DNA of 64,000 nt. Origin: Candidatus Bathyarchaeia archaeon. GTDB lineage: Archaea; Thermoproteota; Bathyarchaeia; Bathyarchaeales; DTEX01. The notes beneath the pieces were generated by a model. It was not told the DNA's origin. It ran no database searches and saw nothing but the letters and a program-made list of their open reading frames with translations. This document shows, in pieces, positions 3,917 through 6,049 of the stretch. Each line of letters opens with the position of its first letter. The stretch's first letter is position 1. Location: the NCBI GenBank assembly GCA_038868075.1, contig JAWBXB010000003.1, positions 47,156-111,155 of the forward strand. Direction: 5' to 3'. The position numbers and the translations under genes were made by a program.

Positions 3917-4429
3917 TTAAGAAGCTTTTATCCGTCCTTTCAATATATCTCCTACCACCTTCTTCTTATTTAGGGCTTCTAGGAGTACGAAGCCAAGAAT
4001 GTTGATTGATATTAAAGAGCCAATAAATAATCCAAGTAAGCTTATTTCAATCGGTATCCCTAGTAGAAGCGATAGATAACCCCCCACAATAACCGTTATG
4101 GTAATAGTTTCCGTTAAGCAACCCAAAAATCTACGCTTAACGCTATCTCCACCAATAAACCATGCTAACATACATGCCGCAAAATTTGCGATTCCTCCAA
4201 TAACAGCATCAATAAATCCATAGGGACCAAAGAAATTTGCGATAAAACAGCCCAAGCCTAATCCTAATGCCGCTGGAAAACCAAAAATTATCGAAAGAGG
4301 AAGAAACGCATCCGCAACTCTTATCTGAAATCTAGGATCAAAGCTTATAGGCGCTAAAAACGTGACGCCAATAGCATATGTGGCTGCAAAGAACGCTATT
4401 AATGCCACCTCAGTACTACTAAATTTCAA
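3917..4429 (-). CDS. queT: QueT-like (ECF S-component type) queuosine/archaeosine-precursor transporter
   Basis: Polytopic membrane protein with the motifs RVADAFLPL, GLGLGCFIANFFGPYGFIDAVIGGIANFAA. The start is moved to TTG 4429, 6 nt after AGGAGGTGG. The track's N-terminal extension MSGSPPPPVPP reads through a GC-rich hairpin. Confidence 0.6.
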   Translation of the reverse strand: MKFSSTEVALIAFFAATYAIGVTFLAPISFDPRFQIRVADAFLPLSIIFGFPAALGLGLGCFIANFFGPYGFIDAVIGGIANFAACMLAWFIGGDSVKRRFLGCLTETITITVIVGGYLSLLLGIPIEISLLGLFIGSLISINILGFVLLEALNKKKVVGDILKGRIKAS

Positions 4430-4435
4430 TATTTT

Positions 4436-4499
4436 CCACCTCCTACACCGGGGTTTATATGGCGGAACGGGTGGAGGTGGGCTCCCACTCACCCGCCAT
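4436..4499 (-). promoter_or_regulatory. structured 5' leader of queT with an anti-SD segment (candidate translational switch)
   Basis: On the minus strand, ATGGCGG...CCGCCAT arms (4499-4493 / 4465-4459) enclose GGGTG..CACCC and GTGGG..CCCAC. CCACCTCC inside the hairpin (4480-4473) is the exact complement of the SD GGAGGTGG (4443-4436). Confidence 0.4.
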
Positions 4500-4615
4500 T
4501 AAATGCTCTAAGAAAATGTTTTCTCATTAATAAAGGTTTTGAAAAGGGAAAAATTATTTATTTGTTACTGGCTTTACACTATTTTATTAGGAGATTTAGG
4601 AGTGTGATGTTTTAA

Positions 4616-4855
4616 ATGGCTGTTGCTGAGGAGAGGAAGGAGCCCTACCGTTCACATAAAGTTGTTATTAGAGGTGTTGTTGAAGGATACGAGGTTGCAT
4701 CTCTTGAAGATCTAAAGAAAGTTGAGGGATTAATTGAGGGATTACAGAATGAGATAAATGCCCTTAAAAGTCAAATAATTGAACTACAAAGAGCGCTAAA
4801 CGCTACAAATATGAGATTAGAAAGATTAGAAAACTTCCTGAGATCATTCAAGTAA
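4616..4855 (+). CDS. small coiled-coil protein, function unknown
   Basis: 79-aa ORF with a heptad-like C-terminal half (LIEGLQNEINALKSQIIELQRALNATNMRLERLENFL). An SD-like aggagtgtgat lies upstream. Confidence 0.4.
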   Translation: MAVAEERKEPYRSHKVVIRGVVEGYEVASLEDLKKVEGLIEGLQNEINALKSQIIELQRALNATNMRLERLENFLRSFK

Positions 4856-4990
4856 TAGATCAAAATGAACCCATATTCTTGAAGATCAACTTTAAAGCTA
4901 AAATTAATTAGGCTGAATGCTGAAAATCTCTGCTATTACAATCAAGGTATCCAATATTGGCTAAGTGTCAGGATTAACTTTAGAGGGAGA

Positions 4991-6049
4991 ATGATGGATC
5001 TAAACATCAATAAATTATTTTTCGCTATAGCTTTAATAGCAGCTTTTACCGCCGGAGCCCTCTTATCATACATCTGGGTCGTAGGATACTATGTTTCATT
5101 AGAGCTTAAAGCCCCTAAAAAGCCAGCAATATCAATATATGATTTTACTGTATCGGTTGAAGACCCAACATTTTTCAATATTAGCATTCTTAATCCATCA
5201 TTCTCACCTAATAGGGTAGAAATTTTAGGAATACATGTTTTAACTGGAGATAATATCGTCCATAAAATTACATCAACGGATCCAAAGATATCTTCTGAGG
5301 GCTACACTTTAGATATCGGGGCTTCAGAAACATTTAGATGCTCCTGGAATTGGACAAAATATACTGGGCAATCGATCACCATAATAGTTTTAGTTAAGGA
5401 TGGAAGCGGCGGAGCCCTTAATATAAAACTTCCATTGATAGAGATAAAAATTACTAGCCTAGAATTTAACCCAGAAGAGGGAAGCCAATTTAATGTAACC
5501 ATAGAAAATTCCAATAGGTCAGATGATGGCATTGATTTAGTTAATATTAAAATTACTGATGATAACATATCTTATAACGTTGAGACTTATCCTTCATTAC
5601 CAATAAGACTTAACCCATCTAATTCAACCACTCTTACATGCAAATGGAACTGGTTTGACCATCAAAACAAGACTATAACTTTGACTGTAGAAACACTACA
5701 GGGCTTCATAGCCGAGAAAATCTACAAAATACCATTATATGCAATTTTAATTATAGAAAATGTTGAATTTAACCCAAGTGATACCTCTCATATTAATGTT
5801 ACAATAGTGAACCCCGAGAAGTCTCTTACACAACTAAATATCACAGACATAAGATTGATACTTGAAAATGGAACAACAATTATGCTTATGGAAACCGAAC
5901 CTAAACTCCCATATATAATTGGTGTGAATAGGAGAGTAACATTTACATGCGAATGGAATTGGTCAATTTATCGTGGTAAAGAAGTAACAATCACGGTGAA
6001 TACTAAACAGGGTTATAAAACAAAAATTATCTGCAAAGTGCCGCCATAA
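4991..6049 (+). CDS. membrane-anchored extracellular protein with three ~100-aa tandem beta-sandwich-like repeats
   Basis: N-terminal TM helix (FFAIALIAAFTAGALLSYIWVV). Three repeats each end in a CxWNW motif (FRCSWNWTKYTGQSITIIV, LTCKWNWFDHQNKTITLTV, FTCEWNWSIYRGKEVTITV). Many NxS/T sequons. Confidence 0.6.
   Translation: MMDLNINKLFFAIALIAAFTAGALLSYIWVVGYYVSLELKAPKKPAISIYDFTVSVEDPTFFNISILNPSFSPNRVEILGIHVLTGDNIVHKITSTDPKISSEGYTLDIGASETFRCSWNWTKYTGQSITIIVLVKDGSGGALNIKLPLIEIKITSLEFNPEEGSQFNVTIENSNRSDDGIDLVNIKITDDNISYNVETYPSLPIRLNPSNSTTLTCKWNWFDHQNKTITLTVETLQGFIAEKIYKIPLYAILIIENVEFNPSDTSHINVTIVNPEKSLTQLNITDIRLILENGTTIMLMETEPKLPYIIGVNRRVTFTCEWNWSIYRGKEVTITVNTKQGYKTKIICKVPP

Follow-up and report, generated by a model that had tools for sequence, protein, structure and literature searches.

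The gene queT lies on the minus strand of a 64-kb stretch of DNA from an uncultured Bathyarchaeia archaeon (64,000 nucleotides of contig JAWBXB010000003.1, analysed whole and called here the window), and a short GC-rich leader precedes it. An earlier note on this DNA had read the leader as a hairpin able to sequester the Shine-Dalgarno (SD) sequence of queT, and as a candidate archaeal riboswitch or translational switch. As a candidate, this reading is now supported by conservation across a family of leaders, by two alternative pairings, by gene association and by promoter geometry. A public protein entry of 170 residues (P0001) is 100% identical to the QueT protein of the window. The closest QueT genes belong to metagenome-assembled genomes (MAGs) of Bathyarchaeia, and the window itself comes from a hot-spring lineage of this group.

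Between 4499 and 4427 the minus strand reads ATGGCGGGTGAGTGGGAGCCCACCTCCACCCGTTCCGCCATATAAACCCCGGTGTAGGAGGTGGAAAATATTG, in exact agreement with the letters first reported. The arms ATGGCGG (4499-4493) and CCGCCAT (4465-4459) are fully complementary at these coordinates, and CCACCTCC (4480-4473) is the exact complement of GGAGGTGG (4443-4436). The outer arm had been described as a helix of 7 bp. All seven pairs can form in the window, but only five are conserved in the family (GGCGG/CCGCC, 4497-4493 with 4465-4461); the two positions further out are paired in 60 and 29 of 110 sequences, and these two extra A-U pairs were dropped from the outer helix, P1, as not conserved. Similarly, the nested GC stem GUGG-GAGC-CCAC can form, but it belongs to a lineage-specific insertion of 7 nt, seen only in the window and in loci L001-L004 and L059, which folds either as this mini-hairpin or as an extension of G12-G14/UCC with an 8-nt loop. 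The N-terminal extension that had been called spurious, in the 191-residue open reading frame (ORF) starting at 4492 ('MSGSPPPPVPPYKPRCRRWKIL', 'MSGSPPPPVPPYKPRC'), is indeed read-through of the leader. CCACCTCC occurs three times in the window against 0.9 expected, only modestly over chance, and two of the three occurrences are accounted for by the anti-SD and by the SD read on the opposite strand. The weight of the case comes from comparison, not from the window alone: more than 100 other archaeal contigs have the same element ahead of queT. The coordinates of its parts are given in Table 1.

Table 1. The queT leader, its parts and its surroundings in the window.
Feature	Position	Strand	Basis or remark
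queT coding sequence, the regulated gene	3917..4429	-	TTG start 4429-4427; 170-aa ORF; Pfam QueT PF06177, E=2e-25
Conserved leader RNA motif	4433..4499	-	match to covariance model R1, 79.9 bits, E=5e-22
Shine-Dalgarno GGAGGUGG	4436..4443	-	complementary to the anti-SD; spacing to the start codon
Linker L3 AUAUAAACCCCGGUGUA	4444..4460	-	invariant AAACCCC(GG) at 4448-4456
P1 outer helix, 3' strand CCGCC	4461..4465	-	pair counts; helix predicted independently by RNAalifold
3' strand and internal-loop segment ACCCGUU, with one bulged U	4466..4472	-	invariant
Anti-SD CCACCUCC, family core CCUCC(C), at the hairpin apex	4473..4480	-	in 110 of 110 sequences; outside the search pattern
5' strand of the middle and upper hairpin, G6-G14	4484..4492	-	pairs with 4466-4475 in state A
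P1 outer helix, 5' strand GGCGG (N1-G5)	4493..4497	-	pairs with 4461-4465; paired in 105-110 of 110 sequences
Likely promoter of queT (B recognition element, BRE, and TATA box), AAAACCTTTATTAATG	4525..4540	-	same box in relatives; predicted transcription start ~4500-4505

We collected at least about 130 instances of the leader, 110 of them unique, on independent contigs from Bathyarchaeia, related archaeal MAGs and metagenomes; the host records are MAGs named Bathyarchaeia, Nitrososphaerota and Nitrososphaerales. Across this family the leader sits just downstream of a TATA-like box and just upstream of queT. Some loci were found through the protein, others by scanning metagenomes with the pattern CCGTTCCGC-N5-6-AAACCCC-N5-10-GAGG, which returned at least 119 stretches and fixes 20 bases, including CCGTTCCGC, AAACCCC and GAGG. 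The complete 5' half, (N)GCGGGU(G/A)(A/G)GUGG...CCUCC, lies outside this pattern and is present in all but four of the listed matches. Three GC-rich chance matches to the DNA pattern (L097, L099 and L140) were excluded, L091, which has no 5' half and scores only 31.7 bits with the model described below, was not aligned, and L120 and L122 are cut off by the contig end. The 110 unique relatives were aligned by plain MAFFT (A1) and by hand (A2), and a covariance model, R1, was built from the collected sequences. R1 finds the leader once in the window, with no second copy. Searched in 50 other loci, it gives a single strong match in each locus that bears the motif. It also matches copies in MAGs named Nitrososphaerota and Nitrososphaerales (L161, 84.6 bits; L160, 56.5 bits). 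It has no match in the bacterial queT loci L007-L019, and two scans of viral contigs returned no match to the motif.

Conservation of the element upstream of queT orthologs is present even though the proteins behind it have diverged to a median identity of 41%, with a minimum of 16%; the leader itself is near-invariant. In L001-L004, where QueT is 66-79% identical, it is nearly the same base for base, while the flanking intergenic DNA is different. Many public archaeal QueT proteins carry N-terminal extensions that are the leader translated in two frames ('...HLHPFRHINPGVGG...' and '...PPPVPPYKPRCRR...'). Through these read-through extensions the motif can be traced upstream of QueT genes down to about 46% identity, and the contigs of six such proteins yielded diverged copies of the leader. 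Purifying selection, as far as these comparisons tell, is acting on the leader RNA.

The first of the two folds that we propose, state A, is a long imperfect hairpin. We number the 5' part of the family N1 G2 C3 G4 G5 G6 U7 G8 A9 G10 U11 G12 G13 (G14) [N C C U] C C (C); the 3' part continues as A C C C G U U C C G C N', followed by an A-rich linker, AAACCCCGG, 3-7 nt and (G)GGAGG(U). The lower pairs are N1-N', G2-C, C3-G, G4-C, G5-C, G6.U, a bulged U, U7.G and G8-C. Above them stand an A9xC mismatch, G10-C, U11-A, G12-C, G13-C and (G14-C), closed by the tetraloop NCCU. Unguided, RNAalifold predicts both the outer and the upper helix, and for L024 and L028, two of the common variants, state A is the unconstrained minimum free energy (MFE) fold whether at 37 or at 70 C. 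The fraction of paired cells is 96.8% in A1, and up to 97.4%, against 45-61% in controls with slid partners (45-58% when A1 is slid by 1-3 columns). Observed pairing, double-change cells and covariation score were each reached by none of 500 shuffles.

The positions that do vary keep the hairpin together. The closing pair N1:N' is G-C in 88 of the 110 sequences, U-A in 6, A-U in 5, G.U in 5, C-G in 1 and unpaired in 5, a degree of pairing that none of 10000 shuffles attained. G6.U and U7.G are invariant, G8-C is found in 99 of 110, G10 pairs with C or U in every sequence (G10.U in 5), and U11-A is kept in 105 and swapped to G-C in L107. In the 'type 2' sequences (L020, L021, L102, L104, L116 and L160) A9 and the opposite C are both deleted, so that the mismatch disappears and the helix register is kept. 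Sequences with a CCUCCC rather than a CCUCC tract have a 5' strand longer by one nucleotide, a coordinated insertion of a G-C pair; the gap between U11 and CCU is 4 nt in 35 of 51 sequences with the extra base and 3 nt in 42 of 59 without it. Between 4 and 6 pairs of the conserved structure show changes on both sides. Covariation upstream of queT, on which the earlier note had made its proposal depend, is found for the hairpin and for the anti-SD:SD helix alike, both keeping complementarity through two-sided changes. A shifted register, GCGGGUG/CACCCGU, was rejected for the family as a whole: in it N1, which covaries, would have no partner, and the missing C of type-2 sequences breaks it. A kink-turn in the internal loop was dismissed by inspection, since the 3' strand has no G.A/A.G tandem.

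In the second fold, state B, the apical NCCUCC(C) would pair with (G)GGAGG(U) of the SD to form helix P2 of an H-type pseudoknot. On A2, lower P1 and P2 together have 96.9% of paired cells, against 45-54% when slid; P2 alone has 95%, with two-sided changes in four of its eight pairs. The decisive column is an optional base beside the A that pairs with U11. When this base is C (45 sequences), the base before GGAGG is G in 44; when it is U (3 sequences), that base is A in all 3; when it is absent (59 sequences), that base is A in 49 and G in 4. An extra C is accompanied by an extra G in 44 of 45 sequences, against 5 of 65 without it (Fisher p=7e-24, uncorrected for relatedness). On a neighbour-joining (NJ) tree of the 93 associated QueT proteins, the anti-SD state changes 19 times, the SD state 23 times and the pair taken jointly 25 times. 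This shows that the two change together many times. Complementarity is also kept in variants with other sequences: CCUCUC/GAGAGG in L020, ACCUCCCA/UGGGAGGU in L021, CCUUCC/GGGAGG in L057, UCACCUC/GAGGUGA in L073 and CCACCUCC/GGAGGUGG in the window. Extending P2 to c6:t1 was tried and abandoned, as this pair shows no covariation (8258 of 10000 shuffles were equal or better).

G12-G14 in state A and the SD guanines in state B compete for the same cytosines, and the two states are therefore mutually exclusive. Insertions and deletions are coordinated on all three strands, i.e. the G12-G14 strand, the anti-SD and the SD. The suggestion of two exclusive folds, one with the SD free and one with it paired, thus agrees with pair counts that back both. 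Rough energetics suggest that state A would be favoured without ligand: the MFE of a type-1 sequence is -23 kcal/mol (state A), whereas lower P1 (about -7 for the window sequence) and a 6-bp P2 duplex (about -9, a bimolecular estimate) sum to a less favourable value. If so, a factor that stabilises the knot would turn translation off.

Between and beside the helices some nucleotides never vary in the loci found through the protein or in the read-through translations, namely G6/U7 with GUU and AAACCCC(GG). CCGUUCCGC, which the metagenome search pattern fixes, is invariant in the protein-found loci L001-L004, L020-L031, L160 and L161 and appears as 'PFR' in read-through translations; AAACCCC is invariant in all protein-found loci and appears as 'NPG' in 20 read-through translations. 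These invariant unpaired nucleotides are natural candidates for a binding pocket or a tertiary contact. A third possible partner of the SD was also noticed, at 4450-4453 of the window facing 4439-4443 (A1 columns 56-57 with 71-72).

Promoter geometry predicts that the element lies inside the transcript. We aligned 118 unique upstream regions on N1 and found a peak of AT content, 80-92%, at -35 to -27, preceded by an A-rich stretch at -41 to -36. In L001-L004 the box AAAA-CTTTATTA sits 28-33 nt ahead of GGCGGG. The usual distance from the centre of an archaeal TATA box to the transcription start is about 26 nt. This geometry predicts a start 3-7 nt before N1, near 4500-4505, and the mRNA would then carry the complete element at its 5' end. 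A start downstream of 4459, which the earlier note held to be fatal to its proposal, is not what the AT-rich box predicts: it places the start 5' of the element. Downstream, the spacing between GAGG and the start codon has a mode of 7 nt across QueT loci (9 nt in the window), and a conserved SD at this distance implies a leadered mRNA. The start codons of the family are TTG (40), ATG (33) and GTG (23).

The genes behind the motif belong almost entirely to one pathway. Of the 136 listed pattern matches, 115 have behind them an ORF identified as QueT by phmmer; most of the others also stand before queT, with an unusual start or a longer spacer. In at least 10 loci (L039, L050, L063, L069, L072, L074, L090, L103, L145 and L148) queC follows queT directly on the same strand, with QueC proteins 52-62% identical to that of L084; L111 is a weaker case. 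In L084 itself QueT and QueC are fused in one ORF behind the motif (4139-5344). In L107 and L113 the gene behind the motif encodes a radical S-adenosylmethionine protein; QueE models take the first five places among its NCBIfam hits (E=1e-27 to 1e-15, all under the equivalog cut-offs), and in L113 queC follows queE. The only context outside the que genes among the loci listed is that of L056 (213-950, minus strand, motif at 790-853) and L112, where it is followed by the gene of a multi-pass membrane protein ('...SILAALYAAASFLPISVYIGGEGLITANV...') that matches nothing in Pfam or NCBIfam and does not resemble QueT by BLASTP. This protein is a candidate for a new transporter of 7-deazapurines. 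It is also a possibility that the QueT proteins of queT-queC loci import the substrate of QueC, 7-carboxy-7-deazaguanine, rather than 7-cyano-7-deazaguanine (preQ0). The link to 7-deazaguanines that the gene context of the window had suggested is thereby much reinforced, since this leader also stands before queE, before operons of queT and queC and before a QueT-QueC fusion. QueE and QueC make preQ0. A regulon of queT, queC and queE suggests that the signal would be preQ0 or its immediate relatives. Archaea insert preQ0 at position 15 of tRNA to form archaeosine (PMC5372724; PMC4770233).

We therefore arrive at a reading to which we would give about two chances in three: the element is the 5' leader of the queT mRNA in an undescribed family of structured cis-regulatory RNAs, most likely a 7-deazaguanine riboswitch, with preQ0 as the best guess for its ligand. 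The RNA would start a few nucleotides after the transcription start and adopt one of two exclusive folds. In state A, with GGCGG/CCGCC at the base, the G.U/U.G/bulged-U loop in the middle and GUGG(G)/(C)CCAC at the top, CCUCC(C) would be buried and the SD free, and queT would be translated. In state B the top 2-3 pairs would open and CCUCC(C) would pair with (G)GGAGG about 30 nt downstream, the resulting knot blocking ribosome binding. A ligand might bind among the invariant unpaired nucleotides, in the GU/GUU loop and the AAACCCC linker, and stabilise state B. When 7-deazaguanine is plentiful, the transporter and biosynthesis genes would thus be shut off, as expected from a translational OFF switch. 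We infer ligand binding, the identity of the ligand, the ligand-bound state and the exact transcription start.

Several observations weigh against this reading or call for caution in using the evidence for it. Most helix positions never vary, and covariation is carried by few columns. Conservation of the bases fixed by the search pattern is documented only by about 12 protein-found loci and 20 read-through translations. The hand curation of A2 (72 columns, gaps written as N) was done with knowledge of the structure, and events were counted on a rough NJ tree of QueT that controls for kinship only approximately. The fold of the window falls inside the distribution of its shuffles (z=-1.16, not significant), and its MFE structure is the shifted register GCGGGUG/CACCCGU with the mini-hairpin instead of state A. 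The motif is also missing at several archaeal queT genes, namely those of the Methanomethylicia locus L032 and of L005, L006, L157-L159 and L162; L005 and L006 are two Bathyarchaeia queT genes with 43% identity. Finally, in RNAalifold and MFE folds two C's of AAACCCC pair weakly with two G's of the SD. Both segments are invariant, which puts this pairing beyond covariation testing, and the switching scheme may be more complex than the one above.

How does the leader compare with known riboswitches? Riboswitches known in archaea are the thiamine pyrophosphate and fluoride/crcB classes, cis-acting sensors of metabolites or ions in leaders as we propose here. These classes are shared with bacteria and far commoner in them, whereas the present motif was found only in archaeal contexts. 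Riboswitches are rare in archaea, and to our knowledge every class reported from them is borrowed from the bacterial repertoire. Features expected of a riboswitch are found in the family: a conserved 5' leader RNA with covariation (110 unique sequences, most pairs of which never vary), an expression platform with mutually exclusive pairings, and association with a single pathway (queT, queT-queC, the QueT-QueC fusion, queE and queE-queC). Rfam 15 has no match in the window or in five variant loci, neither at gathering thresholds nor at E<=10 with permissive filters. The covariance-model check against preQ1-I, -II and -III that the earlier note had called for (preQ1 being 7-aminomethyl-7-deazaguanine) thus gave no hit, not even a weak one, and does not support membership in a known preQ1 class. 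As a control, 13 bacterial queT loci (L007-L019, from Clostridia, Acholeplasmatales, WOR-3 and others) had no Rfam preQ1 match at gathering thresholds within 1.5 kb, so that the sensitivity of Rfam on queT leaders is without independent confirmation here. Full-text searches of the paper library that was available found no paper on an archaeal preQ0 or preQ1 riboswitch or on an archaeal queT leader motif.

The preQ1 family has three classes and five motifs, all bacterial, and a 2024 review of it does not contain the word 'archaea'; class II is limited to Bacillota and class III is mostly metagenomic or from Ruminococcaceae (PMC11625349). Bacterial preQ1 riboswitches control queT and queCDEF by locking the SD into a pseudoknot (PMC11625349). 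The nearest in function is preQ1-II (RF01054, the COG4708/queT motif of Streptococcaceae and Lactobacillales), which also lies in the 5' untranslated region of queT and uses the SD as a pseudoknot strand; its control of translation only and its action as an OFF switch for a 7-deazaguanine would be expected here as well, and both folds can take up a variable hairpin (PMC11625349). That an SD serves as a pseudoknot strand upstream of queT in both is a functional resemblance only. PreQ1-II has an HLout architecture with P1-P4, whereas the present fold would be of the H-type, with a long interrupted P1 and the anti-SD as apical loop; the hosts of preQ1-II are Bacillota rather than archaea, and the likely ligand here would be preQ0, since archaea use preQ0 rather than preQ1. 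PreQ1-I (RF00522), which regulates queT, yhhQ and queCDEF (PMC11625349), shares the H-type pseudoknot, an A-rich 3' linker after P1 and a P2 whose 3' strand overlaps the SD. Yet it measures about 34 nt with a P1 of 5 bp, against about 65 nt, a P1 of 11-13 bp with a G.U/U.G/bulged-U loop and other conserved nucleotides here. PreQ1-III (RF02680) is also found upstream of queT, mostly in metagenomes, with an anti-SD/SD helix as expression platform (PMC11625349), but its aptamer is separate from the SD helix, whereas the archaeal leader has the anti-SD at the tip of its main hairpin.

These comparisons make it very doubtful that the leader is a diverged member of preQ1 class I, II or III. The gene context and the logic of a pseudoknot burying the SD are the same, and the A-rich linker followed by C's recalls preQ1-I (PMC11625349). 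Still, no preQ1 or other riboswitch model matches, helix lengths and conserved sequences differ, and the known classes are bacterial only (PMC11625349). A protein-dependent translational operator deserves more thought, even if we consider it unlikely. Here a 7-deazaguanine-responsive RNA-binding protein, or an enzyme such as the archaeal tRNA-guanine transglycosylase (ArcTGT) that reads a tRNA-like feature, would bind the invariant nucleotides and shift the balance between hairpin and pseudoknot, and the RNA itself would bind no metabolite. The extreme conservation of unpaired bases fits a protein site as well as a ligand pocket. Moreover, A9-G13 ('AGUGG', 4485-4489 in the window) may resemble A14-G15-U16-G18-G19 of the tRNA D-loop, where ArcTGT exchanges G15 for preQ0. 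Action of ArcTGT on RNAs other than tRNA has been a matter of speculation (PMC4770233). Yet type-2 variants lack A9, the gene tables of the loci examined show no candidate regulator recurring beside the motif, and characterised leaders of this kind at bacterial queT are all direct sensors of metabolites (PMC11625349).

A constitutive structured 5' end, or an RNA thermometer, would stabilise the mRNA or adjust translation to temperature and sense no metabolite. Many thermometers are built in this way, from a GC-rich 5' hairpin and an SD complementary to an anti-SD, and some hosts do come from hot springs. We find this improbable. A thermometer would not need invariant single-stranded segments, nor would it be tied to a single pathway (queT, queC, queE) and appear once in 64 kb. 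Its ground state should be closed, and the most stable predicted fold leaves the SD free. The contigs also come from many metagenome projects, as told by many distinct accession series. At the level of DNA, the inverted repeat could be a palindromic operator for a transcription factor, and ATATAAA (4460-4454), about 25 nt before the SD region, might be the promoter of a leaderless queT mRNA. This seems to us quite improbable. The segment before AAACCCC varies freely (AAAC, ACGAC, CACGAC, CUCUAG and others), which led us to reject it as a promoter. The 5' part (AUAU) and the 3' part (UGUA) of linker L3 differ in sequence and length across the family, so that L3 is not a TATA box, and a better fixed TATA/BRE lies upstream of the element. 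The arms are strongly asymmetric and bulged, the conserved SD points to a leadered mRNA, and G.U pairs are tolerated (G6.U and U7.G are invariant, N1.N' and G10.U occur in 5 sequences each); such pairs keep RNA pairing but not DNA symmetry, which argues against a DNA-level element. Finally, the GC-rich stretch might be coding, as an N-terminal extension of QueT or a conserved upstream ORF, since gene callers extended QueT through the leader in many public entries and TTG, ATG or GTG stands at -2..N1 in 56 of 110 leaders. This idea can in effect be considered refuted. The extensions run in two frames and are broken by insertions and deletions in the loop; a start codon at -2..N1 is lacking in 54 of 110 leaders, and in the others it opens short ORFs of varying length or fusions, with no conserved peptide. 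Conservation is at the nucleotide level, third codon positions included.

Some observations were made along the way. P0055, the QueT met most widely in Bathyarchaeia (in 87 blocks of the collection), belongs to loci L157-L159, which have a different leader: GGUAG-uuuccguauauaac-CUACC followed by UUAAAAAACCCGGGUUGAAUGAAAUG (1453-1503 in L157, also in L158 and L159). By eye it recalls preQ1-I, with a small hairpin, 'AC' before the 3' strand and an A-rich tail. It has no Rfam match and reaches only 10.5 bits with R1, and may be a second, separate archaeal queT leader motif. On the other side of queT's upstream region, a divergent ORF encodes a 79-residue coiled-coil protein (4616-4855, plus strand) with weak, sub-threshold Pfam matches. 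It is syntenic with queT in L001-L004 and has its own conserved AAATAAATAATTTTT box between both genes (4556-4570). Lastly, false N-terminal extensions of about 15-40 residues, in two frames, are found in public QueT entries (P0004, P0007-P0009, P0012, P0019, P0020, P0023, P0026-P0029, P0031, P0034, P0037, P0038, P0059, P0075, P0087 and P0101) as in the 191-residue ORF of the window (4430-4492). The leader family exposes these as a systematic annotation error.

What would a 7-deazaguanine riboswitch in Bathyarchaeia mean? The leader is a candidate for a structural class of its own, new among regulators of a known kind and to date seen in archaea only. We think the odds slightly favour a stronger statement: that it would be the first riboswitch class confined to archaea and a fourth, unrelated 7-deazaguanine aptamer, tuned to preQ0, governing translation initiation as an anti-SD hairpin/pseudoknot switch and defining a regulon for preQ0 salvage and synthesis, of queT, queC, queE and a membrane protein gene, in Bathyarchaeia. 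If true, archaea have evolved metabolite-sensing RNAs of their own and use SD sequestration to control translation, and this in one of the most abundant uncultured lineages. A fourth independent solution to the recognition of 7-deazaguanines would be useful for the study of convergent RNA-ligand recognition, and it may be the first natural aptamer selective for preQ0. The motif also joins queT, operons of queT and queC, and the gene of an unannotated membrane protein in a single regulon, and it provides a direct handle on the salvage of archaeosine precursors.

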